Origin: Malacoraja senta
Taxonomy: Eukaryota
Assembly (NCBI GenBank): GCA_038087875.1
Contig: CM075987.1
Location: 18,974,001-19,038,000, forward strand
DNA length: 64,000 bases
Direction: 5' to 3'
A program made the translations under genes and the position numbers. Below the pieces are notes generated by a model. It was not told the DNA's origin and ran no database searches. It saw nothing but the letters and a program-made list of their open reading frames with translations. Below, piece by piece: positions 17,885-51,895 of the stretch; positions within the stretch are counted from its first letter, which is position 1; each line of letters starts with the position of its first letter.

Positions 17885-18784
17885 GCAAAACAAAGTGTTG
17901 GAGGAACTCTGTGAGGCAGCATTGATGGCGTTTCAGATCACCCTTCTGCAGACTGTTTGCATTTTAATATCTCTTCTAGACACCCAACCACAATAACACT
18001 CTCCAAACTCAACGAAGTTTATCTTTGGGAGACATTCGAATAAGCAAGTTCAGTGTACTGAAAATCGCAAGGAATCATGGGATTTGTCAAAGGTCATTCA
18101 CTATAAAGAAAAAACGAACGAAGTGCTAGCTGTATAAACTGTGTATAGATTCTTATCTTTATTCATAATTTATGTGTAAAAATATATTTAATCTGAGGAA
18201 CAGGTGTGCCAGGTAACGGGAGAGTGGGATGTAACAGCGAGAGAGAGGGGGGCAGATGCGAGTGGGAGACGGGGAGAGACTGGACCGGCGGAGAGACATT
18301 CTCGGCAGCTGAACTGCTGCGTGTGTACAGACGCATTTCAACCATAGTCAGGATAGAACCCGGGTCTCTGGTGCTGCAAGCACTGTTGAATTGCTACTGT
18401 ACCGTCCTCGTCCCCTCCTGAGTGTCCCATCCCTGTCCAGGGGCGGCCGGAGATGTCCGGGGTAACCCTAGATTGACGGGACACCAGCCCGGAGCAGTGG
18501 CAGTCCCAGGCTTACAGCCAGCGTGGACCGTCTGTCCAGGGCTGTCGGTTAACCCGGCGGGACAGGCAGAGTGGAGCTAGAGATATCGCTTCTTCTCCGC
18601 TTGTTTCTCCAAGCGCTTACTCTTTCTCTATTAGAAAGCTTTGCAACATTGAAATCATCAACTATTCCAATACTACAAGTACTTGGTGGTCCAACAAATG
18701 CAAATTTAATTTACATTTGAATGCGTTTCAATTAATTTACAGAAACTACATGAATAAGATAACAGCCAGTAGCCACTTCCTTAC

Positions 18785-18904
18785 CAGAATGATGTCCACT
18801 CTGTCCCTTTTGCTCTTGTATTTGGTCAGCTTTTGTATTCTTCTCTTTTCTAGGTCATTTCTGTCCAGATTTAGTAACTTGGTCACCTTATCTTGGATGA
18901 AAGA
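18785..18904 (-). CDS. CCDC187: Exon SFIQDKVTKLLNLDRNDLEKRRIQKLTKYKSKRDRVDIIL
   Basis: ttttcccccaag|TCT ... CTG|gtaa; 120 nt, phase 0-0; CEP350-like KRDRVD motif. Confidence 0.9.
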
Positions 18905-20332: not shown

Positions 20333-20479
20333 CGTTACTTCCGTTTTATCCTCTTTATTGAGAGAATGACCAGGATAGATTATAGCTTGAGACCTGGTTT
20401 TCATCCATGGATCTAGTTTGGGCTTTTGTTCTTTTATCAAGACATTTTGGAAAATATCAGATGTCAAATCAAAAATGGT
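20333..20479 (-). CDS. CCDC187: Exon TIFDLTSDIFQNVLIKEQKPKLDPWMKTR...KTEVT
   Basis: ttttgttcatag|ACC ... ACG|gtaaat; 147 nt, phase 0-0; matches the CEP350 FDLT..IF...P.WMK block. Confidence 0.88.
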
Positions 20480-24125: not shown

Positions 24126-24237
24126 CTCTACCTGAATTATCTGTGCATTTTCTATGTGATGTCTCATGTCCTCAGCCTGACCCAACTGCAAGAGGCTTTA
24201 GACCTGTGCAGATGCCACCCACCCTCATGACATTCAC

Positions 24238-24576
24238 CTGCTTATATACTCTCTTGCATTTTTCATCAGCATCCATTTCATCAGTATCCTTATGGCACTC
24301 CAACACATTGATCTCATTGCCAACCTGATGCTGGCCACGTTGGCTCCACAAGGCATCGACAGCGTTTCCAGCCAGATGTTGAACATCTGTGAAGTTATGA
24401 GGCACAACAAACACAGTTTCCTCCGTCCGCCTCTGGGGAACAGAACACCAACAGTCCAACAGAAACATCTGTCCATGGGTTTTAGTGCCCAGGAAGGGTT
24501 GTAGCGCATTCAGCTCTTGATTACCTATATCCTGGCTGCTTTCACAAATCCCCACGTGATGCATCATTTTGCATGG
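24238..24576 (-). CDS. CCDC187: Exon PCKMMHH...VFVVPHNFTDVQHLAGNAVDALWSQ...KCKRVYKQ
   Basis: ttttttaatatctcaatag|CCA ... CAG|gtgaat; 339 nt, phase 0-0. An alternative in-frame acceptor exists at 24432. VVPH and KRVYKQ motifs as in CEP350. Confidence 0.85.
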
Positions 24577-25976: not shown

Positions 25977-28726
25977 AGTCAAACATTCTCGTGCAGGCCA
26001 AGGGCAGAGAATTAATTTTGCTTCTCTGCTTCCAATGTGTTTTTCCTTGATTTTTTCGTATTCTTTCGTGGCTTCATCTATGATTTCCGTGATTAAATTT
26101 TGGGTCACTTTTTCTATGGATTCTTGGCTCCACCCTGTTGGTGCAATTCTAATTTTATCTTGCAGTTGCACACAGTCAATGCTGAGGTGGTCAGTAACAC
26201 CTTTGTTCATTTTGTCGTGACCTATCTGTCCTTTAACTGGTCGAGAGTTTTGCCAACTCAGTTCAGAACATAGCTTGATTTGATGCTTCTCTTGGGTGCT
26301 CTGCTTTTCCAGGTCTCTGGAGCTGGTCACTTCACCCAAAGTTCCTTCCACCAGATGTTCTGCGAGATACTCTTCAACATCATTCACTGACTGCTCACTG
26401 TCTTTGCCCACAAGGTGAAGCTGAACTAAAGTACAGACTAAATCTTCTGAATTAAGACGAGTATCTAAGTCCGAATTTGCCTCCACTTCAGCAGACAGCA
26501 AATTCTGAGAATCTGCAAAGGATTCTACTGCCTTCGCACACTCCAAAATTACCCGTTCCAGCTCAAGATCATTGCTACCACTCCAATGGTTGCCTTGGTC
26601 TGAAATCAGCCTGTTGTCACTTGCCTGAGAGGCAACACTTTTCTTTTTTACCTCCTTGGGTTCCTCTTCAAAAGAATGAGCTTGGCTCAAACTATCATCT
26701 AGACCTTTTAGGTTTTGCATAGGTAGCCCTTCAGAGAATGAGTCTTCACTATTAGAGACATCAGTATTTCCATCAGAATTATCCCATCGGTGGGGAAACT
26801 GCTCTGCAGTAACAAAATTATCACATTTCTCTATGCATTCCATGCATTCCAGCCCACAGGAGGTTTTGTCATGACCTCCTTCTGCTTTATCCAGTTCTAC
26901 AGCATCAAATAGCGTGTGTCCTTTAAACTTTAAGGAATCAGGCTCCTTATTATCTACCAGCATTTGTTCTCCTATAGTAAAACACCTTAAATGATTGACC
27001 AATTCTCCTTCTGTTTGAGATTGGTGGATACTTGAGGGCTCCAACAAGAGATGATCTCCACAAAATTGTGTGGAGGTTTCCTTGCCTCTACTTGTTCTGA
27101 GGGGGCAATTCACTGTATAATTGCCTTTCTTACCCTCCACTATTTCTTCAATAGGCGGAAGAGGAAGGCGATGGAGATCATCAGTGTCCATCCTGCAGTG
27201 TTTATCACTCAGCGAAGATTTGTATTTGAAAGAGTTGCCAGCAGATGATGGTGCTATGTCTTCAATGTAATTTTCTCGTGATGGAGATGGAAGCTCTTCC
27301 CTTAGGTAGATCATTTCTTCAGGTGGCGGAGGAAATTCTTCAGTTTCAAATGCGATATTAGCCTCAGCAGGAGGTGACGAGACTTCTGTTTCAAATAGCA
27401 TTAATTCGTCAAATAGAGAATTCAACTCGTTCATACTAAGCATTTTGTCTTCTTCCATTGGAGCTGGCAGATCCTCAGTTATGAATGAGATTTCTGCCAC
27501 AGGAGATACCTGTTGCTTCTGAGTCAGTGAGTCAATGAGTGGAATGGCCAAGAGTTCCTTTTTGCAACTGGGCTTTGAAACTGGCAATAAACCTTGCTGA
27601 CTGCATAATACTCCTTCAGCATTCAAAAAAGGCAATGCAACACTTCTAGATTCAATACCTTTAGCGAGAAGTGCCTGATCTTTGCTAGGCAAGGATACCT
27701 CTTCAACCACTTCACTTCTTAATGAATTTACTTCTTGTGGTAAAGATGGGAATGTATCATTTCCACACAAAGTATCTTTCACAAACAATTGCACTTCCCT
27801 TTTGCCCAGTTGGAGTTGATCCACGCAATTTGAATTATCTTCGGGGCTGGAAACGCCATCAATAAATGAAAGGAAGTTAGCTGGGGAAATTGCTTTTGCA
27901 GTGCTGGAATCTCTAATAGAAGACTGCTGACAACCTGCCAAACATGTATTCTCTTTCAGCAAGCAGCTGCTTTGCAATGATAATGAACCTAAAGCTTGCT
28001 CACAGATGGGTGATTGAGCAGCCATCATCTCCTTACTTACAGGTTTGTTTGGTCTTATCTCAAAAGCAGGCTGCTGAATAGAGGAAGGTGCGAAACCAGA
28101 CATATTGGCAGAAAGAATGGGAATTCCTAACTTATTTTCTTTGATGTCTTCTGCATTCACGACAACAGTACTTGGGTGATTTTTTTCAGATTCCTCCCCT
28201 TGGTCTGGTTTCAGTTTGGTATTGCTATTTACCATATGCCAACAGGAGGTCTGTGAAGAATGATCTGCTGCCTTGGTTGGAAGGTCGCTCCAAAAATCAC
28301 TTGTGTTCGATAGTGACTTCACTTGAAACAATGGTTCCCTCAGTTTTGATGGAAATATGGTTGCATTTTGATCAGTATAAAATGTTCTAGGTAATTGGTC
28401 ATTGTTGCTTTTGGTTCTATAGCAAGCTGAATAGTTGGACTCATTGCATTGTAGTGTCTCTTCCTTGGAGTTGGTGGGTGGGCCAGGTGGCTTAATGACA
28501 TTATCCAAACTGTCAGGTGACTCTGGATTGACACACAGTTGCACAGCTATGTGATGGTTTTCTTCACTCTGCGTCTTGTCGATGGGATTGGGAGGAGGAT
28601 GATGCTGGAGCTTGAAGCCATAAGTTAACTTTTTGTCAAAATCAGATCTACCAGGCAAGGGTAAATCCACAGCTCCAGCTATCTCTTGTGATTTCCATGC
28701 CTTTGCCACATCTCTAGCCGCCTCAT
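25977..28726 (-). CDS. CCDC187: Giant 2,750-nt internal exon (acidic/Ser-rich, contains decayed CAP-Gly)
   Basis: Corresponds to the 950-aa ORF; acceptor gtcatttcag|AT (phase 1), donor ACT|gtgagt (phase 0); open throughout. Confidence 0.9.
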
Positions 28727-31502: not shown

Positions 31503-32183
31503 TTTAAGTTTTCTTTAACACACTACACATTGCCACTAGTTTGAATTTTTGTTTTACTTCTCTTGTCCACTTTTTTTCCCTTTGGTTCTCTGTGCCTTTT
31601 TTGTCCCTACTCATTTTCTTCACTCATCTTTCTCATTTTGGTTCCTCCTGCTTTGCTACCTGCAAACCGCTCGTCAATTTTCAGCCAGGATGCAAATGGG
31701 AAGAGAGCAGAGGACCATAACATACAAAGACATCAAAGTCATGCTCAGGAACTTAAATATGCCCATCTTTGAAGAAGTGTTTTAAATGCACAACATCCTT
31801 CATGTGTTCAAAGATATCTGGGTAGTAGCCCATTTCTACTGACTCCATGCATGCCCCTGATCACAATCTGTGGCTTTTCAAGTAAACAGTTAAGGGACAG
31901 CAAGCTACGGCAGGAGTCCCAGCTGAATTTGTCCTTGGTCCTTTTTCCAAGGCAAGGAGTTAGACAGCACAGACAAGTCGCCATGGCAACTGGTAGCCGT
32001 GATCCCATGGTAGCACATGTTCCAAATGCAACACCATCAATTGCCCCCCTTACAGGTCAGATATCAATACAAAAATTGGATAAATATGATAGCTCCATTT
32101 GGGAATTAGTAATGCCTGCCACATTTTGAAGAAAAACTTAATCTATATGTAGCCTTTAATTATTTTTTCTATAATCTCTATAC

Positions 32184-32320
32184 CGCTGCAGCCAATGTAA
32201 ATCCACATGTGACTTGTACTGAGCTGCGGCAGGGATCTTAATTTGAGGTTTTTGAATCTGGTTGACATCAGTGTCCGAATTCAGTTCAGCTTTTGTCCTA
32301 CGGATAAACTCATCGTAAGC
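32184..32320 (-). CDS. CCDC187: Exon AYDEFIRRTKAELNSDTDVNQIQKPQIKIPAAAQYKSHVDLHWLQ(R)
   Basis: tttattacag|GCT ... CG|gtatag; 137 nt, phase 0-2; matches CEP350 SYDEFIKKTEAEL...KPQIK. Confidence 0.88.
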
Positions 32321-32499
32321 CTGTAATAAAAACAGCAGAAACATGACAGTCAGAATCACTGGGCAAGTTATCAAACATAGACAGAAGAAACAGTTCAGAG
32401 CAAATAAATACATCCGTCAGATGCCATTTTAAACAACTACTACTCTGAATCTGATTGGCTTTTGAATATTCGCCGCAATCACCCAATTATTAATTAATT

Positions 32500-32770
32500 A
32501 GACTTTATTAATCCCCTTATTCAGGGGAAATTCAGATGTCCTTGCAGCACACTAATAAAATACAACATAGTATTAAAAAGAAGTTCAACACCAAAACATC
32601 CCCCCACAGTGGTTCCCACTGTGGGGGAAGGCACAAAGTCCAGTCCCCATCCTCTTGTCCACCCAGAGTCGGGCCCACTGAGGCCTCCACTGTCGCCGCC
32701 ACGGCGCCCGATGTTCTCGCCGGGTGATGGTACTCCGGCATCGGGGAGAACCCCAAGCGGCTTGGGGTAC
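32500..32770 (-). mobile_element. GC-rich retroposon 3' fragment, copy D
   Basis: Reverse complement matches copy B at ~21680-21785 (GGACTGGACTTTG..CCTTCCCCCACAGTGGGAACCA.TGTGGGGGGATG). Confidence 0.7.
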
Positions 32771-33496
32771 CAAGCTCAAACTCAAGATCAAAGATCAAAG
32801 CCATTCTTACTAACTCAAAGCCATTCAAATCAATAAGTTCTAAGTAAGTAGGGAGTCTTAAATGCAATCTGCTTTGACCACATCACAGAAGTAATCAGCA
32901 AAATTAAGTGTTGGAGAAACCCAGCAGATCAGGCAGCATTTGTGAATGAAATGTTGATATTTGTTATACCTGCCTTAACTACTTTCTCTGGCAGCTTGTT
33001 CCGTTGCCTACAATTTGCCTACTGTGAAAAAGCTGCCCTACAGGTTCCCTATTAAATCCTTCCCCCTCACCTTAATCCTATGTGCTCTAGTTCTCGATTC
33101 CCCAACCCTGGGAAAAAGATCCTGTGCATTCACCCTATCTATCCCCCGTCTTCATTTCATACAATTCTACAAGATCACCCCTCAGCCTCTTGCTCTCCAA
33201 GGCATAACGTCCTAACCTGCTCAACCTCTCCCGAAAGCTTAGGCTCTCGAGACCTGCAACATCCTTGTTAAGGATTTGTTTGTTCCTGTTTTAGGCCCTA
33301 GCACATACCTCATCTAAAGGAGACCATGTCTTATGCTGCAGAGCATATGTGTGGCCATTATCAGACCACAGTGTGCAACTTATGCCCAGATTTGAAACAA
33401 GAATGCTATCCACCAAACTGCAGCTAATATTAATTCAACACATGGTTTCAGTAAGGGTCACAACAAAACACTTGCTCTCATTTGGCACATGCAAAC

Positions 33497-33647
33497 CTCC
33501 AGTTTGCCTGCACAGTTCAGCTTCCTCCATCTTTAACTTTTCCCTCTGTCGCCTCCTTTGCTCACTCTGTACACTGCCCATTACCTCCTTGCTGCTCGCC
33601 AGCTCACGGCTCAGTGATGAAGTGGTGGGTTCCTCTGTCTGCAGGAT
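33497..33647 (-). CDS. CCDC187: Exon ILQTEEPTTSSLSRELASSKEVMGSVQSEQRRRQREKLKMEEAELCRQ (boundaries/frame uncertain)
   Basis: ttccattacag|ATC; similar to CEP350 EQKKRQKERLKAQEASL. Donors at 33497 (GAG|gtttgc, phase 1) or 33585 (GAG|gtaatg, phase 0). See the frame-anomaly finding. Confidence 0.65.
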
Positions 33648-33715
33648 CTGTAATGGAAATTAATTCTGCATCATTCACAATGGCTTACGCAAGGTCCTAT
33701 TTTAGAGTCATAGAG

Positions 33716-34756
33716 TAGGTATGTTACAAAACTTACCTTCAGTCGCGCTGTAATTCTGCCACTGGCCGTGTGCGCGATTGTGGCGCCCTTTAAGGGGGGG
33801 CGGGGTTAAAACGCGGGTTTCTCCTCCCTTGTCCTGGTAATATTTTGTTGGAGTACAAGCGTTGGCTGAAGAATCGGTCCTAGTGGCCTTTTGTGCATTT
33901 TTTATTTTTTATTAAATCGTCAATGTCAGCGCTAGAGTAATTTTAAATCAGCTCCTGAAGCGTCAACGCCGATAACGGGGGACGGATTTCACACACGGGA
34001 CAGGTAAACGAAAGTGGTTTCTTTAAATGTATAAAAGTGCTTCTAAGAAGCTTTAATTCACATTTTCTTCATGCGACACGGTGATTTTATTCACCGAATT
34101 AACGGCAGTATTTTTCATGCCAATACGGGGTTAAATTCACCGCAAATGAACGTTCCAAAAGATCGCGTTCCAGAAATCCTCACTCACAAGATGATTTAAA
34201 TCCCCATTAATTTACAGGTATTAAACATTCAATTCCTTCCATTTGGCCTGTAAATTCATGAAAAATGAGATTTAAAAATTATGTTATATTGTGAATTATT
34301 GTGTGAATGTTATTTGGACACTTAGGCTATTTAAAAATGTTAATCTATTCTTAAGAAATTGATAGATGTTTAGATCTAGTAATTGAATTTTGTAATTAGC
34401 TACAATTAGGTAACTAACTAATTATATGCTTTACTTTCATGTCTTCTAAGTAAGATTGTTTCATATTTGTTTCAGAATGCTTCAATCTATAATAACTGAA
34501 AATTTCTTTCAGTTATCTTAATTTTAAGAAAGTTATGGGCTTTTAACTGTCCTCGATCACAGCTTTTGTGTTAAGTCAATGGAAAAGCAATAGGGAACAA
34601 GATGCTAATTTCCGAGTATGAAAATGGCCATAACCTCTTTAATACTGAAGATATGAAAGTGAATTAGGTGTCAAATTAAACTTCTTTTTATGCTTTATCT
34701 GATGGGATAAATTGCAGACTTTATTTTTAAAATCACAAAATTTTGTAACATTGCTA
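33716..34756. mobile_element. Non-autonomous TIR DNA transposon (1,041 bp)
   Basis: Imperfect 16-bp TIRs TAGGTATGTTACAAAA / TAGCAATGTTACAAAA (rc); direct repeat CATAGAG at 33709-33715 and 34757-34763; no transposase ORF. Confidence 0.78.
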
Positions 34757-34848
34757 CATAGAGGCACAGAGCTATAAAGCATGGAAATAGGCCCCTTCGT
34801 GTCCACGCTGACACATTGGTCCAGTTCCATTTATCTGCATTTGGCCCA

Positions 34849-34862
34849 TCTATCTATATATA

Positions 34863-34913
<51 letters not shown>

Positions 34914-35409
34914 GAGGTGTGTGAGTGTGAGTGTGAGTGCGAGTGCGAGAGCAGTTTCCGTTTGTGTTTTTCTACCTTTGTCAAAACGCTACGCGCTAGA
35001 GTTGAAATTTTTAAAGATTACTCGCATTAACCCGGTCAATGCAATAAACAAGGTTTCCTTCACATTTCATGCTATATTTCAAAAGTTATTGACGATTCAA
35101 GTTTAAAAAAAGGCAAAAACGGTTCTCGCACGCAGCCTTTTTCAGGACTTTCCAATGATGATGTCACAATGCCACTCACAGTGCACCAATCAAAATGGGC
35201 TCTCAAGCTGGGTTATTCATGGTTAAAGGTTAAAAAACAAAACCACCTTTTAAAACACAGCTTCCACTGACGTCACAATGCCCCCCCCCCCCCAACAGAA
35301 TATTCCACCACCTTCCAGTGACGTCAGGGGGAGGGCCTCATTTAAAAAACAGTTTAATCAGCTCCCCAACGCACACCATTGGAGGAGCAGACTTCTGCAC
35401 TTGGTCTAG
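34849..35409 (+). mobile_element. Complete non-autonomous Helitron-like element (561 bp)
   Basis: 5' TC start; 3' hairpin GCAGA/TCTGC then ACTTGGT-CTAG; inserted between A and T with no TSD, and removal restores ttggccca|tattcctctaaacc; internal (AG)n. Confidence 0.82.
34868..34950. repeat. (AG)n microsatellite grading into (GTGAGT)-like repeats
   Basis: Directly visible. Confidence 0.95.
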
Positions 35410-35828
35410 TATTCCTCTAAACCCTTCCAATCCATATATCTGTCCGAATGTCTTTTAAATTAAATGTTATCAATTGTTGTGGAATGGCAATGGTAGCTGG
35501 AACCAATCACCAGTTGTGTCCAATTGGGGACCTTACTGCTGCCTAAGACTGGCCATGGCAAATATGGTGATGTGGGTTGTGTGATTTGATTAATTATAAC
35601 TGTGCCATTATTTTAAAACTCATACTCAGTATTATTTAAAAATCAATACTCATCTACGTACATTTTGGGAAGAATAAATAATTATCAAACCTGTCAATTA
35701 GGCATTTATTGATGGTACCAACCAGATACAACCATGTATCAGCAGAACATCAACATAAACAGCTTCCAAAATCCATAACAACAACATAATCTCTCCTTTT
35801 CTAGGCATGTGGCAGATTTATTTCTTAC

Positions 35829-35934
35829 CTTTGATTCGGAAATTCTTCTCTGATTGAATCTTGGCTGCTTTCATCGCCAACTTTTCAGAAGGTTCTGGAA
35901 CCGTAGAGGTCGGTTTCGAAGTTTCAGCAGGTTT
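35829..35934 (-). CDS. CCDC187: Candidate exon KPAETSKPTSTVPEPSEKLAMKAAKIQSEKNFRIK
   Basis: ttttcatttacag|AAA ... AAAG|gtaaga; strong splice sites, 106 nt, open only in phase 0-1. Confidence 0.65.
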
Positions 35935-36962
35935 CTGTAAATGAAAAACCTTTAAATGTAAAATATATTATTGTAACAACAAATTTCATAACCCAATGTT
36001 CAATTCTAGAGAGGAGATTAGTCGGTCATAGTTGGGTAGCTCACTCATACTTTAACATCAAGAGACTTGCCATCATTAATCTTGGGGTATCAGGCATTGT
36101 GCTGTGTTGTTGCACGATGGTCTAAACTCTGGATTGGGTATGTGATGCTGGTGTGCTGAGATTGGAGGTGTCAGAATTGCATCAAACTGTTAGACCACTG
36201 CTCTACTATTCTCCCTGTTCCAAAGGTGCACATTCTGAGATCAACCTGACAATGAATTGCCTCTACTTGAAGAAGCATTCTCTAAATCAGCAGATGTTCA
36301 TAAATCCTTACAGGACAGCCAAAGTATCAACATCAATGAGCATAAGACTTGCTCTTTTTTTATGTTTATTTGTTACTGTTTCAAAGTTTATGACACCTCA
36401 ATCTTTCAGATGCAAACTTTCACCTATTGTATCATCCTTACATAAGCAAAGGTCTTAACTGTCAGGTAGTGGTGATGTAAAATTATACAAAAAATGACGG
36501 GAGATCTCATCAAAACATAAAAATTTCTTAAAAGGCTTTCCACGCCAGATGCCATGGGTTATTTTTCCGGTTCAGGAGGTTGGGACCACGATGCAGAGTT
36601 TCAGAATAAGGGGTATGCCAATTGAGGCTGAGATGGAGAAATGTCTTCATTCAGACAGTAGTAAACCTTCAGAAATCTCTACCCAAGATGTCTACAGAGG
36701 CTTAGGCAGATACGATAGTAGCGTTTGAGAGATTTATGGATAGGCATGTGGAGATGCATGAAATGGAGTGGTATGGGTTATGTGCCAGCAGGTAAGAGTT
36801 GGTCTAAGCATCATATTTAGCACAGACATTGTTCTCTGTTCTATTAGCCATGATCATAATGAATGCTATGGTAAGCTTACGGGCCAGTGGGCAATTGGTA
36901 TTCCCATTTCTTATACTCCTTGGATTTATTATAATTGTAGAGAACATTGAGATTGTGCTTAC

Positions 36963-37075
36963 CTCATTCTGCTTCTCTCCATTTAGTTCATCCATACCCC
37001 TCGTTACCACTTTGGTGATCTCAATGTGCTTTGTTGATTCTGGGGAATTTGAGCATTCTTTAACATTCGAGTTAT
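36963..37075 (-). CDS. CCDC187: Exon (D)NSNVKECSNSPESTKHIEITKVVTRGMDELNGEKQNE
   Basis: ctcccttatcgattag|AT ... GAG|gtaagc; 113 nt, phase 1-0. Confidence 0.72.
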
Positions 37076-40000
37076 CTAATCGATAAGGGAGAGATTCACA
37101 AAGGAGTATCATATCTAATGCCACTCTATACAGATACGAGAGATCTCAGCTTCAACAGCTGGTCAATGGCCATGGTTAAAGTACCAACACTGGCTGGATT
37201 AGCAAAAGTAGAATCAAAGAGATTCCCACCAGAATTGGCCTGTATTTATGGACGAATTTCATCTGCCTCCTTATACCTCAAGGTACTTCAAGGCCAATGA
37301 ACCGTTTAAAAAACACAAAAAAACGTACTTGCTGCTGTAATTTAGAAAATGCAGCCATTAATTTTCACTAAACAATGTGGATAAAGGCAAGATCATCTAT
37401 TTTACTGATCATGCTTGAAGAGCTAAATAAATGGCCAGTCATCTTGGAGAATTCTCCTGCCTTTCTTCAAAACAGTGCCAGGTGCTGCTTATCCATCTGA
37501 GGGACCCAGCTATATATTTTTTTCCTGGACTTTCCCGACAGCACTTCACAAAACCCTATACCATTAAAGACAAGGCAGCAGGCATTTGGGAATTGGAACA
37601 TAGCCACCATGCTTCTTTCCCTCCACTGTATGCTCATGTCCCATCTCTTTTATTGCCTTCTCTTTCTCCTTCCCCTGATCCTCTACCAGCCATATCCCTC
37701 CAGCTTGGATTTCACTGCTCACCAAACCTAAAACTCTTTTGTCTCCTCTTCACCTCTGGCATTTGTCACTTACTCCACCCATCTGCCAATCAACGTCCAC
37801 CCCCCCCCCCCCCACCCCCCCACATGTCTCCACCTATCACTTGCCAAGTTTTGTCCCACCTCTACCTCTCTTTTCCTGCTTTCTCCCTCCCACATCACCC
37901 TGAAGAAGGGTCCCGACCCAAAACAATGACTATCCATTTCCTCCACAGATGTTGCCTGACCCACTAAGTTCCTCCAACACTTGGTTCCCCTGCAGGTTGA
38001 TCTTTGCTTTGACTAGAATGTACCTGTTGTCCCTTCATTGTCACTGCCTCTAAATCACGGAACTCCCTCCTCAAAAGCAATGGGAGTATTTTCATTGGAA
38101 GAACAGCAGCATCTCACCATGAACTTCTCAAAGGCAGTTAATAATAGGCAATAAATACTGACTTCGGTAGTGACACTAAAACCCATTAGCTGATTAAAAA
38201 AAACTGCCAGCCACAAATACGTGTAAATGGATTTCAACAGAGATAAATGGAACCTGTTACATTTTGAGAAGAAGAAAGCTGCATATTCCTTGAGTAACAA
38301 GAAGTGAAGGAACAAAGTGATGCAAGGGCACAAATCATCAAAAATACCCATAAAGGTTTACATTGGAAAAACCAACTAAGCACTGGGCTCATCTCCAGAG
38401 AGATGGAATGAAAAGCAAGAAAAGTTAATGGGAATATGGGGCAGACATTGGGTGAAGTGAACGAGCTTGAATGGGGCATCTTGTTGGACATGGATCAATT
38501 GGACTGAAGGGCACGTTTCCATACTATTTGACTCAACGAATCTCCTTCCAACCTCTTCATTTAACCCCATCATTACCTTATGTTCTTTCTCCTTAAAGGA
38601 CTTATTCAGTTTTCAATTAAATACATCAATGCAATTTTTCTCAAATTGTTCTAATGGTCACACAAACTCCTTCCGAAACACCTTACAGGCAATTAGGGAA
38701 CTAATCAATCTCAAGGATCATCCCGAATTTCCAGCAATTGATATTTTTTTTAATGTAGAAGCTGGTAATCAGAAATAAAAACAGGAAATGCTGGAAACAC
38801 TCAACAGATCATCTGTGGAAAGATAAAAAGCAGTTCACGCTTCAGGCCAAAGTCCTTCATTCCAAAACTTTAACCATGATTCTTGTTCCAGAGATGTTGC
38901 TCGATCTACTGACTCCACCCAGCATTTCCTGTTTCACTATATTTTCAGCCCTGTCCCTTTCCACTTATATCCCTCTCTCAAGCTTTACACTTCACTCTTC
39001 CTCCCTCCTTATTTGACACACTTCTGTCTCCTTTTCACCTCTAGCCTTTGTCGCTTACTCGACCCACCTACCATTCAAAACCCTCCCTCATCTGTAGCCA
39101 CCTAAACTTGCCAGGCTTCCTCCTGCCCCTCACCTCTTTTCTTGCTTTCTCCCCTACCTCCACCTCTGTAGAAGGATCCCGATCCAAAATCTCACTTGTA
39201 CATTCCCTCCACAGATGCGGCCTGACCCATTAAGTTACTCTAGCATTCTGTGTTTTGCTCAAGATTCCAACATCTGCAGTTCCTGTGTCTCCCTCAATTA
39301 ATCTCTCAATGGGAGTCAAAATCTGCTAACAATCCGAGTGAGAAATGACCCTGATCAGGCCCTAATGAACAATGTGAAAACATGCCAAGCATATTGCTGC
39401 CTACTAAACCCATAATAGCTGGCAGCAATTGGCAAATACACAAATCACTGGAAGGTTTAGCAGCAATTAGTTTTGATTTGTTTACACTACAGCCGAGTTC
39501 AGAGTATTAAAATAAAATGTAAGTTACCCTCATCTGCTTAAGATACTTATTGAAAGCATCATCAAACTCTTGTTAATTAATTCTATGGGAGCCACTGAAA
39601 GGAAAGTTTCATTTTGAAACATAAGTTTTTGGCTTGGTATCAGCCAAGGTTCAATGGGAGCATTCTCAGTTGTGTCAGAATTTGAAAGCTTCAAGTTCCA
39701 CTCCTTAGTCTGAAGAAGGGTCCCGAGCCAAAACACGGTCAGTCCATTCCCTCCGCAGATGCTGCCTGACCTGCTGAGTTCCCCCAGCACTTTGTTGTTT
39801 GCTCAAGATTCCAGCATCTGCAGTTCCTTGTGTCTCCACTCATGCACTCTGCTGCCTCTCCCACATTGTAACAGCGACAGAAGCTCAAAGCGCAATTTAT
39901 GGATTTAATCTGTGTTTTAATGAGCAAAATGCATTTGGACAATGCAAGTGGTGTCTTTTCAACAAAAACAATTTACGGTGTGCAATATTGAGAAGTTACT

Positions 40001-40794
40001 ATGTAAGCATCTTCCCATCTACAATTAGAGGCATAGATAAGGAGGACAGACAGAATCTTTTTCCTAGAGTGAAAATAACAAAGACTAGAGGGCATAGCTT
40101 TAAGTGAAGGGGAAAAATTTAAAGGAGATGTGCATGGTGAGTTGTTTTTTTACACACATAGTGGGTGCCTGGAATGCACTGCAAGGGGTGGTGGTAGAGG
40201 CAGATATGATAGTGGCATTTGGATAGGTACATTGATGTGCAAGGATATGGATCACGTTGGCAGAGGAAATTTGTTTATCTTTGCATCATGTTCAATTCAG
40301 GGAATTGATGGCCAAAAGGCCTGTTCCTGTGCTGCACTGTAGTTTTTTTTTTTTTGGGGGGGGGGGGGGGGGTCCTACCTGCCCACCTGAAGTGAGCTGT
40401 TAATCTAAACCATTTTAGATTCTACTTTATGGTTATGCACACAAAAGAAATTGTAAACATGCAATTCTCTCCTTTGTACATCATCAGATCATGGACAAGG
40501 GCATCATCCCCTCATTCATGGCCAGTGGTGTTTGAGTTTGGAGTCATCGGTGGTGGGTTGTAAAATAGCAGGAGCTATTTTCCATGAAAGGGCAGAAAAA
40601 GAGAATAAATATCACACTTAACCCTTTCACACACTTCCTGGAAGACAGCCCGAGTTGCAGTTACGGGGCTGGTGTGGTCCTCCTGGTGAGTACTCTGAAC
40701 TCGGCTGTAGTGTAAAGGACCGAAGCGTGACTTGAGGAGAACTTGCAGGAGATCAAATTAAAAGTCCAACAAAGTAATTGAGCTGAAGGCATAC

Positions 40795-40976
40795 CTGTGG
40801 AAGGATCCCATGCGTCTGGAACTTGCTCCCTGATCCGTGGACTCCAGGTGGTCAAAACCTCCGTCTCAGTCCGGTGAACAACCGGTTCCTCTTTATCCAA
40901 AGGTCTCTTCCAGGCCAGCACGCCCATGGCCTGCTTCCGCCGTCTCACAAGCTCCTCCTCTCTTTGTAAAAGGATC
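40795..40976 (-). CDS. CCDC187: Exon (R)ILLQREEELVRRRKQAMGVLAWKRPLDKEEPVVHRTETEVLTTW...
   Basis: tttgcgtttcatag|G ... ACAG|gtatgc; 182 nt, phase 2-1; similar to CEP350 REQKLMQRRQHAEELLEWKRRLDAEE. Confidence 0.88.
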
Positions 40977-41685
40977 CTATGAAACGCAAAAGGAAGCCCC
41001 CCCGCACCCAGCTCAGTCATTCACAAGTCAGAGCTGCTGTAGAATTGGTCAGTTACAATGTGGCACTGATTCTGTGTCCCTGCACCTATCTATTAGCGAC
41101 TTCCCTCAATTCCCAACCAAATCTAGAGGACATTCAGGCAGTAAGGTGTTCAGCCTCAAAAAACAACTCTACTTGTCTCCCAGGATACATAGATACCCCA
41201 TTAATATTTTACCCACTCAGACGGGACAGGAGAAGGGATGGTGTTCATTCAGATGGAACAGCGGGAAGAGTGGCACCATAATACGACCCATCATGCATGG
41301 TCCCACCATAACCAGCCTGTCCCGCTGAGTTACTCCAGCATTGTGTCTACTTTTGATTTAAACCAGCATCTGCAGTTCTTTCCGACATATAAAATCTAGA
41401 TTGCAAGTATTTTTCCTTGCCTGTGACAGACGTAAAGCCTCAACTGGAGTTAAGGAACGGATCAGAGAGAATGCATGATTTGCATTTAATCGGCACTTAC
41501 TAAGACATCAGCAAAGTGCTCGAGAGCTGTTAGAATTATGAGCCATCTTAAAAACGGCTGAAGAGACTTGGAAACTGATTAGCCTTCTCTACCCTTCTGT
41601 GCAAGGATCTGAGATACATTTTTGCGAGCTTGCACTGTTCAGCTTGACTTGGGACACAGCAGCAAATATTGATGGGGCAGCTCAC

Positions 41686-41858
41686 CTTTCATCCAGCTTG
41701 CTGTGCGCATCCGCTGGTCGGTCTGTGGCTGCACTGTCCTCACTCCCTGAGAGCGACCAAGGGGAAGAGCTCCCCACACCTGGGTCAGGCTCAGGACCAG
41801 CCAGAAGTGTGGGCTCACCATCAGCTGTGGGTGGCAAGGCATCCTTCACTCCTGAAAA
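41686..41858 (-). CDS. CCDC187: Exon FSGVKDALPP...SSSPWSLSGSEDSAATDRPADAHSKLDE(R)
   Basis: gtttag|TTT ... AAAG|gtgagc; 173 nt, phase 0-2, fits both neighbours. Confidence 0.8.
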
Positions 41859-42445
41859 CTAAACCAGACCAAGAGAGCAGAGTAGTGATGGCCCAGGAGA
41901 TCCAGCAACAACCCAGTGCATGAACCACGCACTGGGAATGCAATCCCAGTCACTTTCACTTCTGGTGTATGCTCCTCCACTTGTCATAAGCAACAAAACT
42001 ACCCAATTTAAAGCATAGCATGCCACACTTTTGTTTACCACAGCATCCCTCCAATTGCAGGAGCTGACTTGTACAAATGTTGATGTTTCTGATCAGCTTT
42101 TCCGCCGAACGTTTCCTGACCATTGCACACATCCCACACCCCTTGGTTATTCTCTGGTGCAATAACTGAGTCAAGATGTTTCCCATGTCACTGAGAAAGT
42201 CAAACTGTTCCAACAGCATCACCTCAGCTTGTTCCATAATGCCACAGTCCAACCCAATGTGAACCTTAACCAATGTCTCGTCCCATGAAGTGTGGGAAGG
42301 GAGGCGAGATAAATTATTGCCAAACTGGGAGCCAATACAATGGAGAGAAATGGATGAAAGGGGCATGTTGCGAGCAGGAACGTGAGCTGAGATGTACTGA
42401 GGGTGTAGGGTAGAGTCTGCAGAAAGCGATGTTATGGCTTCTTAC

Positions 42446-42592
42446 CCAAGGGCCCGTTGCAGACAAGCTCAGCTGCCGTTGCAGGTTCGCCGTTGACTGG
42501 TGAATCCTAAAGATCTCCTGCTGCTGTTTGAGGAGGAGTTTCCTCTCCTCGTGGGCAACCCGATAGGCATTCTGGAGGTGCCTGATCTCCGC
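42446..42592 (-). CDS. CCDC187: Exon AEIRHLQNAYRVAHEERKLLLKQQQEIFRIHQSTANLQRQLSLSATGPW
   Basis: ttatttttccag|GCG ... TGG|gtaaga; 147 nt, phase 0-0; conserved coiled coil of the family. Confidence 0.92.
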
Positions 42593-43639
42593 CTGGAAAA
42601 ATAAACGGGTCTGTTAAACCAATGCAGGTAGCTAGGCAATTAGAGTTTAATTCAGTCACCAAATCCAACAAGACACTCAGTCTCTTCAATTTCAGGAAAG
42701 CAATTTAGATATTTGACATGTGGCGCCTTTCACCACTACAGGACATCATTTTACAGCACATCAGTGCTTTTTATAAATAGACAAAGAGGTGCCAGTTTCG
42801 CATATCATTCCTTGGCATCTATGCTAGATCACCCGTCCTAAAATTTGTTTAAGGGTCTGAGCGCCTAATTTAATTAATAATTTTTTTTTTCCCTTAAACT
42901 TTAGTCATCCTTTGGAGATATTTTTTAAATCTAAAAAAGTGAAAATCTTTTATTTTTTATTTTTTTTATAAATAAATGCCAGGATGCTGTCCTGATGCAA
43001 ACAGTCACAAAAACACTTCAGCTCATGAAATGTCTCCGAATCATATTCACTCCTCGGGTGTCAAAAATATAGCAGAAAACCATTTCCCAACAAGCTCCGA
43101 CAAACAAAGTGATATTGACCAGGTTATCAGCTTACTGATGGCAAAGGGAGAAGATAGAAATGGTGGGAGTGAGATGGTGATGGTCACGGAGGTCAGGGAG
43201 AAAGCCCTAGCGTACTCTCCAAATCATGTCTTCAAATCTCTTGGGATTTCATAGAGTCGACACAGCTTTGCCTGAATTGATCCCGGCATTAACCAGTACC
43301 TCTTAGAGTGAAGCATCCCTCATTGCTGCTGTTTCGGAAACCACCACATGCTGGCTCAAGCACAAGACACTGCCCACCAGGTCAGGGTTGACAGCAAGCA
43401 ATGGTGTGAGTGGGGCAAAATAGGCTTGATTGTGAGGGTCAATTGGGAAGGGACTACAGGGGCAATGGAGGAAGGGGGCAAGAAAGGGTGTTTACAAGGG
43501 GCAAGAATGGCTGCACTGGTAAGTGGAGTGAAAAAGGTATTTGATGGGGGAAGAGTGAGGGGTAAAGTGAAGTGATGGGTCAGGTGGATGAAAGGGATGT
43601 GAAGGTCTTAGTCAGGGAATGCACATCAGGATTCCTCAC

Positions 43640-43727
43640 CTTTTCCTTCTGTAGCCTCAGTAAAACCTCCCGCTGCTTCCTGATGACAGCAGGCCTTTTA
43701 TCATCTTGCCCTTTGTCCAAGAGATGT
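43640..43727 (-). CDS. CCDC187: Exon (I)HLLDKGQDDKRPAVIRKQREVLLRLQKEK
   Basis: aattccacag|A ... AAG|gtgagg; 88 nt, phase 2-0; similar to CEP350 HLRDKGEDDKMPPLRKKQRGLLLRLQQEK. Confidence 0.92.
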
Positions 43728-44230
43728 CTGTGGAATTTATCAATTCAATGAAAATGGAGGAGTCATGTTTAAAGCATTTTATAATCTGCATCCATGAATG
43801 ATAAAGTCAACCTATTACACCTGTAGTAGAAAGTCTGACAGCCTACATCGGAGTAAATAACGATATTTCCTCTTCCTGCTGGACTGCAGGCAAACCATTC
43901 TTGCTCTATGAAAGGTGCAAGATCCTGCCTGAATGGTCGCTTTCCCTGACGAACACGCTGCTCTATCACCTCTCCCTCTCCCCGTGACATTTGGACAGAT
44001 ATATCGACAGGAAGAGTTACAGGTTAAATGCAGGCAAATGGGGCTGTTAATGGGGCTGCGTTTAACCTGTTAAGCCAACTTGGTGGGCTTCGACAAGATG
44101 GACCGAGGGGCCTCTTTCTGTGCTATGGAGCTATGTGCCTCTGTGCTCGATGGGCAAAATTGCCATCTCTTGTTCCAATTTACTTTTCTCCTCTAAAAAT
44201 TGCATTAGCAAACCTGAAAAGAGGGCTCAC

Positions 44231-44421
44231 ATTTTCTGCTGCTCGAGCCAGGCCAGCTCAGCCTTGGTTTTCTCCTTCAGTGCTTTCTCCCTCAATCGGA
44301 AGAGAGCCGACTGGTGCCTGGCTCGGAGATCCTCTTCCTTCAGGTACTGGTGAGCCATCTCCAGGGTAAAGCGGCTGAACGTGTCCTGATTCCCGAAGAA
44401 GGGCCTCCCCATTTCCTCCCA
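44231..44421 (-). CDS. CCDC187: Exon WEEMGRPFFGNQDTFSRFTLEMAHQYLKEEDLRARHQSALFRLREKALKEKTKAELAWLEQQK
   Basis: ttttttgtctcag|TGG ... AT|gtgagc; 191 nt, phase 0-2; the most conserved CEP350/CCDC187 block. Confidence 0.94.
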
Positions 44422-45703
44422 CTGAGACAAAAAAACAAAAACAAATGTAAAATCCTCGACACCCAAGAGTCCCAATCTACACGTCCTTGGGCACTGTGGT
44501 AATGCTAACATCACGAGTGTCTCACTTACTCCATGTGTCCTGTCATTAAATGAATCAGTACAACACCAAATGGAATTGATATAACACCTTGAATGTACAA
44601 AGGTTCCCGAGGAATGTCACAGGAGTGCTACAAACAAATCATGAGACTGTGCAAACACTTGGTCTAAAAAACTGCTTCCAATAGTAGAGGTTTTTCAACC
44701 AATGAATCCTGCAGGGCTGCTAGTTGCTCAATTGGAGCTGCCTATTTCAACCTTATTCTCTTTTCTTCAATCTTCTACAAACCTCCAACATAAATATGTA
44801 TCAAATTCCTTTTAATTTTAATTACTTAGAGGTGAAACATTCAGCGCTCTAATCACCTAAGTGTAAATATTTCCTGTTATACTCAGCACTCAGTTTGTAA
44901 CACCAATATTCTAATATCCATCCTCACTTGAACATGCGAGTCTTTAAGTTTTAATCACTGATCACTGGTTTAAATCAGTGTTGTTTAGATTTCTCCTCAA
45001 CATTCTCCGTGTTCAAGGAAATGCCCAATGTTATCATGGTATTTCTCCCTCCTGGAAGAATGAGCAATCCTGCACTTCTTAGCTATAGACTACGCACCCT
45101 TCTGCTGAGCCATGTTGTCCTTTCCAATCAACTTCTCATTGGTGCCAGCTTATTAAAAATTATGACTGCCACCATTATTAATACTTCACGTTGACAATGA
45201 CTATATTGACTTGATTGGGCATTTCAAGTCACCAAATCAGGCAATTTTGAGTTCCACTGATATCTAAACAAGCAGCAATGTCGACCCCCCCCCACCCCTC
45301 TCTTACCCATGCCCCACCTGGATGCACGTGCATTTCTCCCATTATCCTGTCCCCTTCCCCTCCCACCACCCCATCCAATTATATCCCTTCCTCCGGTTTC
45401 ACATTTTGTGCCTCTTCTCTCCTATCTTAAGGCTTTTTGCCTTATTTTCATCTCTGGCTTTTGTCCACCCATATGCCAATCAACCGCCCCACCCTCCTCA
45501 CCTGTATCCACCTTTCACTTGCCAGGCTTTGTCCTGCACCTATCTCTCGCCTACTACAATGAGTCTGAAGAGGAGACCCGTCCTCCAGTGATGCTGCCTA
45601 ACCCACTGAGTTACTCCAGCACTTGGCGCCCTTTAAAAAAAAAAATCAACCAACATCTGCAGTTCTTTCCTTCCACATCTTGCTTTTGTCTCCACAGTCG
45701 TAC

Positions 45704-45873
45704 CTTGCTGAAAGAATTGCTCGGTGTGTGCCGTACACTGCAGTCCCCCGAATGCAAGCTCTTAATGCTTTCCATTGTCTGCCTATAATGGCTCTCAGAA
45801 GGCAACAGGGACCACGGCTCCATTGGCTTATCCTGTCTCAGTGATCCGTCGGTGACACAAGTTTGAGCAGCTC
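45704..45873 (-). CDS. CCDC187: Exon (G)AAQTCVTDG...WSLLPSESHYRQ...SNSFSK
   Basis: tctgttacag|GA ... AAG|gtacga; 170 nt, phase 1-0; SLLPSESH motif shared with CEP350. Confidence 0.87.
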
Positions 45874-47501: not shown

Positions 47502-47641
47502 CTTTCCCATTCACTGAGCTCTCCACATCTGCCCAGCTCATAGTGTTCGCCAGATGTTTTGTGGACTCGGGTGATACCAGGGATCTATTCAGCTCCAAAA
47601 ATGAGTCTTCTTTCAGCGAAATATTCTTCCTGCAGCGGAAA
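47502..47641 (-). CDS. CCDC187: Exon (S)FRCRKNISLKEDSFLELNRSLVSPESTKHLANTMSWADVESSVNGK
   Basis: tttctctgtag|T ... AAAG|gtacac; 140 nt, phase 2-1. An alternative in-frame acceptor exists at 47629. Confidence 0.75.
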
Positions 47642-51761: not shown

Positions 51762-51895
51762 CTTAACTCCTCAGTTTCATCTTGGAGTTGCTTCATCAGC
51801 TCAGTCAGCCTCTGGGTCATGGGGTTCTCCTTTCTCTTCGTCTCATTTGTGGTCACCTTCCGAATGCTGGCTGTAGGCTTGGAATCATCCAATGG
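51762..51895 (-). CDS. CCDC187: Exon PLDDSKPTASIRKVTTNETKRKENPMTQRLTELMKQLQDETEEL
   Basis: tttttcttttcag|CCA ... AG|gtgacg; 134 nt, phase 0-2; coiled-coil-like. Confidence 0.8.

Follow-up and report, generated by a model that had tools for sequence, protein, structure and literature searches.

The window considered here, a stretch of 64,000 nucleotides from the skate Malacoraja senta, contains an unusually large coding exon of a CEP350-related gene, within which a preliminary description had noticed what looked like the vestige of a CAP-Gly domain. The locus therefore raises the question of whether this segment is a genuine CAP-Gly remnant, to which of the CEP350-related genes it belongs, and in which lineages the domain has decayed. 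CAP-Gly domains are characterized by a G-x-W-x-G-V strand with a core tryptophan and by a loop of the G-K-N-D-G type that contacts EEY/F tails. Taken as a whole, the explanation that we consider probable is that the window carries a skate CCDC187 whose CAP-Gly domain has decayed in place since the elasmobranch stem.

Homology of the segment to CAP-Gly domains

When a 126-residue segment of the open frame was used as a phmmer query, all nine PDB sequences matched at E ≤ 10 were CAP-Gly domains. The best match was the CAP-Gly domain of human CEP350 (2coz_A; E = 3.6e-11, 46.2 bits), and the remaining eight followed at E = 0.027-1.7. Against the intact CAP-Gly domain of the Callorhinchus protein P0007, a member of the CCDC187 clade described below, the remnant scored 70.7 bits (E = 8.9e-22); its sequence similarity to CAP-Gly domains is far above chance. 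The preliminary description had expected a weak or partial CAP_GLY match in Pfam, an expectation that failed, as hmmscan at E ≤ 10 returned no family for either the window ORF or the 126-residue segment. The remnant stays below the gathering cut-off of CAP_GLY (PF01302; 26.5 bits), and its locus is absent among the 17 matches to PF01302 in the skate's own genome.

To describe the losses, 27 near-invariant columns were defined by requiring the same residue in 15 or more of 16 non-elasmobranch rows. Of these positions, 15 survive in the window and 12 are lost, which, together with the 2coz_A match and the missing Pfam match, upholds the original view that the frame contains a degenerate CAP-Gly domain; the span first assigned to it (26795-26990) encloses the peptide mapped in Table 1. 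In the G-x-W-x-G-V strand, the deletion takes out G40, W42 and A43, and alanine stands in place of G44, all four belonging to the near-invariant columns; the five-residue gap falls exactly on G-F-W-A-G of 2coz_A. The loop corresponding to G-x-x-x-G reads G-G-H-D-K, with lysine in place of the closing glycine (G56), and the loss of about five residues of the strand and the replacement of loop residues are thus as originally noted. The C-terminal half carries the substitutions Y63C, F64M and G71D and retains C66. The likeness to CEP350 extends over about 87 residues of homology with 2COZ, the long architecture of the protein and the position of the segment, which some 270-300 residues separate from the DUF4378-like domain at the C-terminus, whereas the window differs in its paralogue clade, the deletion of G-x-W-A-G, the lack of a PF01302 match, and the replacement of the closing loop glycine, of Y-F and of G-x-F. 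Judged by these residues, the remnant would have lost the ability to fold as a CAP-Gly domain and to bind EEY/F tails or microtubules. An AlphaFold2 model of the window segment contained no strands (pLDDT 39.8, pTM 0.17), and the intact Callorhinchus control, run with the same 22-row alignment, was itself of low confidence (pLDDT 46.9, pTM 0.41, three strands) and thus no usable positive control. A zinc knuckle, considered for the C-x3-C-x2-C-x3-C pattern of the window, was ruled out, since one of the cysteines is missing in Leucoraja.

Gene structure and expression

The mapped features are collected in Table 1. The frame that had been described as a 950-residue ORF is indeed open, although its size needs correction, as it runs from stop to stop over 967 codons (25857-28760, minus strand) and encloses the 2750-nt exon. 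Upstream of this exon, tblastn yielded 12 HSPs with residues 899-1553 of Narcine P0003 and 10 with residues 1015-1727 of Scyliorhinus P0004; the gene continues past the high end of the window, and the proteins of its relatives comprise about 2500-2960 residues.

Table 1. Coordinates of the gene and of the CAP-Gly remnant, counted from the first letter of the window
Feature	Position	Strand	Evidence
Upstream exons of the long isoform (at least 12)	32183..55727	-	tblastn of Narcine P0003 and Scyliorhinus P0004
Giant internal coding exon (2750 nt) with the remnant	25977..28726	-	tblastn, P0002 residues 13-921; AG acceptor, GT donor; RNA contigs
CAP-Gly remnant (62-residue peptide)	26799..26984	-	Exact match; ORF residues 593-654
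Junction of the skate-specific 5-residue deletion (Q-G-Y-W-A of the G-x-W-A-G strand)	26903..26904	-	Alignments
Next coding exon, start of the conserved C-terminal region	24235..24576	-	tblastn, P0002 residues 922-1037, 87% identical
Exon of the C-terminal DUF4378-like domain	20333..20479	-	tblastn, P0002 residues 1037-1085
Exon of the C-terminal DUF4378-like domain	18776..18904	-	tblastn, P0002 residues 1086-1128
Last coding exon, end of the C-terminal domain	4555..4731	-	tblastn, P0002 residues 1126-1184

Contigs from two sequencing runs of two related species, X22 and X6, which were presumed to be RNA (neither run is recorded as such) and contain intron-skipping contigs, join two of these exons. 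Record 11 of X22 and record 24 of X6 splice position 25977 straight to 24576; record 11 of X22 also spans the giant exon, and record 25 of X6 covers 26850-28726. RNA contigs further span 24243-24576 of the next exon, whose low-coordinate edge is approximate. The earlier claim that the frame has remained open is strengthened by this splicing of the exon into RNA contigs. The C-terminal DUF4378-like domain is encoded by the four 3′ exons of the window and matches the C-termini of CEP350. PF14309 gives weak matches in relatives, the nearest ESM Atlas clusters of the C-terminal domain are DUF4378, mostly from plants, and a Pfam scan of the Leucoraja protein P0002 at E ≤ 10 returned no family, neither CAP_GLY nor PF14309.

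One might suppose that in skates the gene as a whole is decaying as a pseudogene, its open frame being a leftover, as the giant exon changes rapidly (the two skates differ at about 10% of its amino acids) and the exon with its flank differs from a related species at 145 of 3572 nucleotides, a proportion similar to that of intronic pieces (3-6%). We regard this as very unlikely, given that 967 codons are free of stops, that all five mapped exons are intact, that the splice sites are canonical, and that two related species have spliced RNA contigs whose net differences in length, -15 and +3 nt, preserve the reading frame as multiples of three. The rate of the C-terminal DUF4378-like domain is no higher than in other lineages (path length 0.82, compared with 0.67-1.64), and NCBI models the orthologue as protein-coding. 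The openness of the frame is better accounted for by the position of the remnant upstream of this conserved domain in the same transcript, because of which any frameshift in the remnant would destroy the domain.

Assignment of the gene to CCDC187

In a careful IQ-TREE analysis covering 33 rows of the C-terminal domain, the window belongs to a 16-row clade with support of 100/99, which includes the NCBI-named CCDC187 of Microcaecilia, Carettochelys and Ammospiza and from which 16 rows of CEP350 proper, with the other copy of the same species, are separated at the same support. A quick tree of 76 rows places the window in a clade of 22 rows (SH-aLRT 100). Genomic context points the same way: the ERV-domain exon of QSOX2 lies on the same strand 58.7 kb from the last exon of the gene (C11:18919702-18919869, minus). 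Among the 17 matches obtained with this exon as query, 15 named rows (63-89% identical) outrank the two QSOX1-type rows (61-64%; one QSOX1 and one Latimeria 'Sulfhydryl oxidase'), and 13 of the 15 are named sulfhydryl oxidase 2, the other two being a mislabelled Lhx3 and an unspecified row. QSOX2 and the CCDC187-clade gene also lie on equally long contigs in Narcine, Callorhinchus, Stegostoma and Latimeria. We take human CCDC187 to adjoin QSOX2 at 9q34.3 and human CEP350 to adjoin QSOX1. Because of the C-terminal tree and the presence of QSOX2 about 59 kb away, the gene is placed in the CCDC187 clade, and its identity as skate CCDC187, in the sister clade of CEP350 proper, is supported, in agreement with the initial proposal that it is a CCDC187-type duplicate of CEP350.

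With the CCDC187 proteins of chimaera and bony vertebrates (Callorhinchus P0007, Microcaecilia P0010, Carettochelys P0014 and Ammospiza P0012), the window shares not only the clade but also an H-D type loop and a K/N-C-G signature, which separate this clade from CEP350 proper, as well as the linkage to QSOX2 (seen in the skate genome itself and, through equally long contigs, in Callorhinchus and Latimeria); unlike the window, these proteins have a canonical CAP-Gly domain. Mammalian CCDC187 is, as we assume, a short protein of about 1000 residues listed as a CEP350 paralogue. It was not identified among the 150 matches listed, for 30 of which names were looked up, and the ESM Atlas gave none.

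CEP350 proper retains PF01302 in all 25 chondrichthyan rows listed, and both CEP350 proper and a CCDC187-type gene occur in two other skates, Amblyraja and Rhinoraja. In a coarse first pass through the M. senta assembly with PF01302, the CEP350 CAP-Gly domains of Narcine and Amblyraja and the Narcine CEP350 C-terminal domain, CEP350 proper was absent from the matches. These searches returned other CAP-Gly genes or the window locus, whose last exon was the sole own-genome match to the Narcine CEP350 C-terminal domain. A second QSOX gene was likewise not found in the assembly, the other Evr1_Alr locus looking like GFER, and because of this second absence we do not read the missing CEP350 as gene loss; the searches rather suggest that a region is missing from the assembly. 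By analogy with the other skates, CEP350 proper is expected to be present in M. senta.

The absence of CEP350 proper from the assembly might also be cited in favour of an assembly or annotation artefact, or of the gene being CEP350 itself, readings that we hold to be extremely improbable. The Leucoraja erinacea orthologue (P0002), which was independently assembled and is 89-90% identical, carries the same five-residue deletion and most of the substitutions, and of the 31-mers sampled from 26400-27400 a fraction of 0.96 recurs in run X2, which derives from another sample of this organism, so that an artefact, which had initially been named as a potential refutation, is unlikely. The exon is moreover covered by the RNA contigs cited above (X22 record 11 and X6 record 25), and identity with CEP350 is at odds with the 100/99 split of the tree, with the co-occurrence of both genes in Amblyraja and Rhinoraja, and with a neighbour that is QSOX2, not QSOX1.

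Decay of the domain across elasmobranchs

The PF01302 profile was scanned against 26 proteins, of which 20 pass (69.9-81.4 bits), three remain below the cut-off and three have no match, two of the latter being unnamed models in which the domain is not covered. All six shark and ray orthologues lie below the cut-off of 26.5 bits: besides the window, these are Leucoraja P0002, Narcine P0003 (20.4 bits), Scyliorhinus torazame P0004 (21.7), Stegostoma P0005 (17.9) and Chiloscyllium P0006 (no match), so that the domain is sub-threshold or undetectable in each. The CAP-Gly domain of CCDC187 is canonical, at 72-81 bits, in chimaera, birds, crocodile, turtle and amphibians. The near-invariant positions give a similar picture, with 13-15 of the 27 retained in the six elasmobranch rows and 25-27 in the 16 other rows, a range that also holds for the CCDC187 of chimaera and nine bony vertebrates, with ray-finned fishes, coelacanth and lungfish.

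Only R18, an arginine replaced by glutamine in the G-D-R-V strand, is lost in all six elasmobranchs, followed by G27D in five of them, whereas the remaining losses, like the indels, vary from lineage to lineage. The five-residue deletion is shared by the window and Leucoraja, and by no other elasmobranch orthologue; it is absent in Narcine, and Chiloscyllium has its own, different five-residue deletion in the core. The acceleration is specific to the domain, since the path-length ratio of CAP-Gly to C-terminal region is 1.05-1.48 in the five elasmobranch rows with both regions, compared with 0.18 in Callorhinchus and 0.34-0.73 in nine bony-vertebrate CCDC187 rows. Within elasmobranchs, identity in the interval 601-660 does not exceed the background of the exon; the Scyliorhinus-Stegostoma value there (33%), for instance, is the lowest of that column's 31 intervals. 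On present sequences, from six species sampled, the decay appears to be elasmobranch-wide rather than skate-specific, with only the five-residue deletion specific to skates. Because the CAP-Gly domain of CCDC187 is canonical in chimaera and bony vertebrates, the decay is not a direct sequel of the duplication; of the originally proposed domain loss after paralogue duplication, the decay itself thus stands, and its immediate connection with the duplication does not.

The retained residues could instead be taken to mean that the segment still works as a strongly diverged CAP-Gly domain, or as a module re-purposed with altered specificity. Half or so of the family-invariant positions (13-15 of 27) are kept, the N-terminal half and V-E-L-D-K-A-E-G are well preserved in skates, Narcine and Callorhinchus, and an acidic E-D-S-F just downstream is kept in most rows of both paralogues. 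The losses nevertheless strike domain-defining positions and differ by lineage, as do the core deletions of skates and Chiloscyllium; between the two skates, 9 of about 91 residues have changed, in line with the average rate of the exon, and among elasmobranchs the region is no better conserved than its flanks. The V of V-E-L-D-K is changed in Leucoraja, where conservation does not extend to the window's extra cysteines either. We accordingly consider a functional domain of this kind improbable and retain decay in place as the preferred reading. The remnant is not fully eroded: as about half of the invariant positions are kept and few differences separate the skates from Narcine in the N-terminal half, a residual or new constraint is possible. 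The segment drifts like its flanks, though not demonstrably like neutral DNA.

Proposed course of the decay and its implications

According to the explanation favoured here, the window contains the C-terminal two thirds of the skate CCDC187 orthologue, a fast-evolving sister gene of CEP350 derived from an old vertebrate duplication. The ancestral CCDC187 would have been a full-length counterpart of CEP350, the second protein of this kind, with a CAP-Gly domain that worked; among the vertebrates examined, this form probably persists in the chimaera, ray-finned fishes, coelacanth, lungfish, amphibians, reptiles and birds. From the elasmobranch stem onwards, this domain may no longer have been needed; a reason for such relaxation may lie in CEP350 proper, which keeps a canonical CAP-Gly domain in chondrichthyans and whose direct binding to microtubules has been reported for the N-terminal domain (CAP350; PMC4357431). 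The segment would afterwards have drifted at approximately the rate of the surrounding, poorly conserved exon, with each lineage losing different core elements (the tryptophan, the last glycine of G-x-x-x-G, Y-F or G-x-F) and acquiring independent in-frame deletions, including the five-residue one in skates, while the DUF4378-like domain downstream in the same transcript presumably kept the frame open.

CCDC187 is almost unstudied: it appears in no title among the literature matches listed, and its co-mentions with CAP-Gly or CEP350 bear titles on unrelated subjects. The present example of a domain decaying in place is a modest one, apparently undescribed. Going further, it may be, although we think it rather doubtful, that an ancestrally complete second CEP350 lost its CAP-Gly domain by in-place decay in elasmobranchs, possibly in parallel with the short form that we assume for mammals, and that the batoid-conserved N-terminal half M-L-V-D-N-K-E-P-D-S-L-K-F-K-G-H of the remnant was retained because it serves a new role, other than that of a CAP-Gly domain. 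If so, sharks and rays would provide a natural multi-lineage 'mutagenesis' series of dispensable CAP-Gly positions in a protein whose remainder still works.

Outside mammals, CCDC187 resembles CEP350 over its full length and has a canonical CAP-Gly domain, which one large vertebrate group appears to have let decay while keeping the gene. This would offer a datable, multi-lineage case of slow in-place erosion of a domain as opposed to exon loss, which may help in judging which CAP-Gly residues matter and opens no major question. It may also be of use in the annotation of proteins now labelled 'uncharacterized', 'CEP350-like' or 'CAP-Gly domain-containing'.

Gene Identity and Orthology

The open reading frame carrying the remnant CAP-Gly peptide is 89-90% identical to the Leucoraja erinacea "uncharacterized protein LOC129712017 isoform X2" (P0002, 1184 aa), a short isoform model whose mapping on the window, together with the other features, is listed in the table. 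At least 12 upstream exons, matching residues 899-1553 of the Narcine protein, reach position 55727, so the gene is long and continues outside the window on its high side. When 1.84 billion representatives were scanned in full with HMMER, 303 relatives came back at E≤0.001, the closest of which are long proteins whose last ~1200 residues align with the query. These include proteins of Narcine bancroftii (2516 aa), Scyliorhinus torazame (2960 aa), Stegostoma tigrinum ("CEP350-like", 2013 aa), Chiloscyllium punctatum (2732 aa), Callorhinchus milii ("CEP350-like", 957 aa), and Crocodylus ("CEP350-like", 2611 aa), as well as those named CCDC187 in Microcaecilia (2714 aa) and Carettochelys (2764 aa).

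Features of the CCDC187 locus (window positions unless stated otherwise)
Feature	Position	Strand	Remarks
Open reading frame	25857-28760	minus	stop to stop, 967 codons
Giant exon	25977-28726	minus	2750 nt; acceptor ...TTTCAG|, donor |GTGAGT, both canonical
P0002 exon 1	28730-25977	minus
P0002 exon 2	24576-24235	minus
P0002 exon 3	20479-20333	minus
P0002 exon 4	18904-18776	minus
P0002 exon 5	4731-4555	minus	last exon of the gene
Upstream exons	55727-32183	minus	at least 12; match Narcine protein residues 899-1553
Remnant peptide	26799-26984	minus	62 residues, ORF 593-654
Cysteine cluster	26850-26880	minus	C-x3-C-x2-C-x3-C
Acidic motif	26739-26760	minus	E-D-S-F type, just past the remnant
Conserved block	27231-27500	minus	ORF residues ~421-510
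Intronic repeats	19702-20202, 22207-23208, 28720-29220, 30724-31725		high-copy, interspersed
QSOX2 exon (Evr1_Alr)	18919702-18919869 of the contig	minus	58.7 kb beyond the last exon, 54 kb ahead of the window start

In a quick IQ-TREE analysis of the C-terminal domain (76 rows), the window protein and the CCDC187-named proteins form a 22-row clade (SH-aLRT 100), sister to a 23-row clade of CEP350 proper. A more careful tree was built from 33 chosen rows, with both copies from Scyliorhinus torazame, Stegostoma, Chiloscyllium, Callorhinchus, Latimeria, Protopterus, Crocodylus, and Lepisosteus; one branch with support of 100/99 parts 16 CCDC187-type rows, including the window, from 16 CEP350 rows, with a treekit warning of long branches within the CCDC187 group. 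When the tree is rooted on Lingula, the CEP350 rows come out as an unresolved grade, which leaves the placement of the root uncertain.

Gene order supports the CCDC187 assignment. The neighboring QSOX2 exon has 17 database matches, of which 15 named rows (63-89% identical) rank over the QSOX1 rows; 13 of these bear the name "sulfhydryl oxidase 2", another carries the erroneous label Lhx3, and the last is left unspecified. Identity falls to 61-64% in the two rows of QSOX1 type, namely one called QSOX1 and a Latimeria row whose name is just "Sulfhydryl oxidase". In Narcine, Callorhinchus, Stegostoma, and Latimeria, the contigs with QSOX2 are exactly as long as those with the species' own CCDC187-clade protein. 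In human, CCDC187 presumably adjoins QSOX2, and CEP350 presumably adjoins QSOX1. Trees and neighbor thus concur with the preliminary description, which had taken the gene for a CEP350 duplicate (CCDC187). The alternative that it is CEP350 itself, or that the finding is an artefact, appears scarcely credible. The mislabelled row is a shark (Carcharodon) cluster of QSOX2 protein called "LIM/homeobox protein Lhx3 isoform X2"; the gene model appears to be either wrongly named or a fusion, and it gives a hint that LHX3, QSOX2, and CCDC187 lie in one neighborhood.

CEP350 proper carries a precomputed PF01302 match in all 25 chondrichthyan rows listed, including the skates Amblyraja radiata and Rhinoraja longicauda. 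Searches of the whole 1.94-Gb assembly of the window's own organism did not find CEP350 proper, which other skates have. QSOX2 is also the only QSOX-type gene found there (a second Evr1_Alr locus, on contig C5, reads like GFER); given this and the presumed human neighborhood of CEP350 and QSOX1, a missing chromosomal region seems likelier than gene loss.

Homology and Decay of the CAP-Gly Domain

When a 126-aa piece around the peptide was compared with all PDB chain sequences by phmmer, all nine matches at E≤10 were CAP-Gly domains. The best was the human CEP350 CAP-Gly (2coz_A, E=3.6e-11, 46.2 bits), followed by eight from CLIPR-59, CLIP1/restin, and CLIP4 (E=0.027-1.7); therefore, the proposed likeness to the CEP350 CAP-Gly reflects real homology. 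The 2coz_A alignment leaves a 5-residue gap in the window segment exactly opposite G-F-W-A-G. Hmmscan at E≤10 returned no Pfam family for the whole ORF or the segment, and a six-frame PF01302 scan of the genome gave 17 matches elsewhere, the remnant locus not among them. The degeneracy is thus real and goes somewhat further than anticipated, a weak or partial CAP_GLY match having been expected.

Among 26 proteins scanned against Pfam CAP_GLY (cut-off 26.5 bits), 20 pass, three fall under the cut-off, and three have no match, two of the latter (P0008 and P0011) being unnamed models that do not extend over the domain. The Callorhinchus paralogue scores 81.4 bits and the CCDC187-type proteins of Crocodylus, Microcaecilia, Carettochelys, Apteryx, and Ammospiza 71.9-78.2 bits; Narcine (20.4), Scyliorhinus (21.7), and Stegostoma (17.9) are sub-cut-off, and Chiloscyllium has no match, nor do Leucoraja and the window in separate scans. 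A 22-row alignment has 27 columns in which at least 15 of the 16 non-elasmobranch rows share one residue; those rows keep 25-27 of them, and the six elasmobranch rows 13-15. The window has lost D8, R18, V19, G27, G40, W42, A43, G44, G56, Y63, F64, and G71. R18 (R to Q) is the one loss common to all six elasmobranchs, and G27D occurs in five; the remaining losses vary by lineage. The core tryptophan is deleted in skates, replaced by cysteine in Narcine, Stegostoma, and Chiloscyllium, and retained in Scyliorhinus, while skates and Chiloscyllium each carry a different five-residue deletion. This pattern of elasmobranch-wide decay fits a single early relaxation and, after it, independent erosion.

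AlphaFold2 with the same alignment gave no strands for the window segment (pLDDT 39.8, pTM 0.17); the intact Callorhinchus control was weak too (three strands, pLDDT 46.9, pTM 0.41), too weak to serve as a positive control.

The cysteine cluster of the remnant was rejected as a conserved pattern, since Leucoraja has C-x6-C-x3-C, and is probably a by-product of drift. The acidic motif trails the CAP-Gly in most aligned CEP350 and CCDC187 rows and is retained in skates despite decay of the preceding domain.

Rates of Change

On a fixed species topology (LG+G4), the path from the CCDC187 ancestor in CAP-Gly columns, divided by that in the C-terminal domain, is 1.05-1.48 in the five elasmobranch rows with both regions, 0.18 in Callorhinchus, 0.34-0.73 in nine bony-vertebrate CCDC187 rows, and 0.50-1.00 in four CEP350 rows. 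Elasmobranch C-terminal paths (0.79-1.00) are no longer than those of other lineages (0.67-1.64), so the acceleration is specific to the CAP-Gly region.

It is possible, if unlikely, that the segment is still functional or re-purposed, as about half of the invariant positions survive and the N-terminal half is well kept in batoids. In 60-residue sliding windows across the giant exon, identity among elasmobranchs at the remnant (601-660) is at or under the exon background: 44% between the window and Narcine (33-68% elsewhere in the exon) and 33% between Scyliorhinus and Stegostoma, the lowest of 31 windows. Compared with Callorhinchus, where the ancestral state persists, this segment has 46% identity, the highest of the exon windows. 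Between the two skates, 9 of ~91 aligned positions in the remnant and the stretch after it are different, matching the 10% seen over the whole exon.

Expression and Proposed Mechanism

In runs from related species, one contig of X22 (organism E) joins 24243-24576 directly to 25977-28726, and one of X6 (organism D) joins 24243-24576 to 25977-26663; in each the intron is missing, as expected of spliced RNA, and from this their RNA nature is inferred. Over the exon, X22 record 11 has a net length difference of -15 nt and X6 record 25 one of +3 nt, each divisible by three. In X2, a second sample from the same organism as the window, 0.96 of the words sampled from 26400-27400 are present. The gene is alive, and its frame, 967 codons without a stop, is as open as first described; that the whole gene is a pseudogene is very improbable.

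Published work on CEP350 (CAP350) places direct binding to microtubules in the N-terminal domain (PMC4357431) and mentions the CAP-Gly as a further, possibly plus-end-directed module (PMC4357431; PMC2586089). An accessory CAP-Gly could become dispensable in one paralogue, CEP350 proper retaining its own; constraint would have relaxed early in elasmobranchs, with erosion following lineage by lineage, and the remnant would stay in frame because the conserved C-terminal domain lies downstream in the same transcript. We consider it likely that the CCDC187 CAP-Gly became dispensable and decayed in elasmobranchs in this way; the three alternatives stand well below this reading. Of 44 papers that mention CCDC187, none of the 25 listed names it in the title, and the papers that combine CCDC187 with CEP350, CCDC187 with CAP-Gly, or CEP350 and paralogy with CAP-Gly concern other subjects, going by their titles and abstracts. 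Among these, neither an intact CAP-Gly in CCDC187 outside mammals nor the elasmobranch decay of this domain was found described. That one domain of a paralogue comes under relaxed constraint is nothing out of the ordinary.

Other Features of the Locus

The public orthologue models each lack a part, at opposite ends: that of Leucoraja begins just before the giant exon, and the Narcine model (P0003) stops at it, without the C-terminal domain. Across chondrichthyans, no part of the giant exon is better conserved than the block at residues ~421-510, where sharks show 38-51% identity and Callorhinchus 43-44% (~25-35% in the rest of the exon); acidic, proline-rich, and without a Pfam match, this block may be a binding motif. 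The intronic repeats are shared among related species; in all four runs their contig depths add up to 10^5 to 10^7, and joints and loose ends are frequent there.
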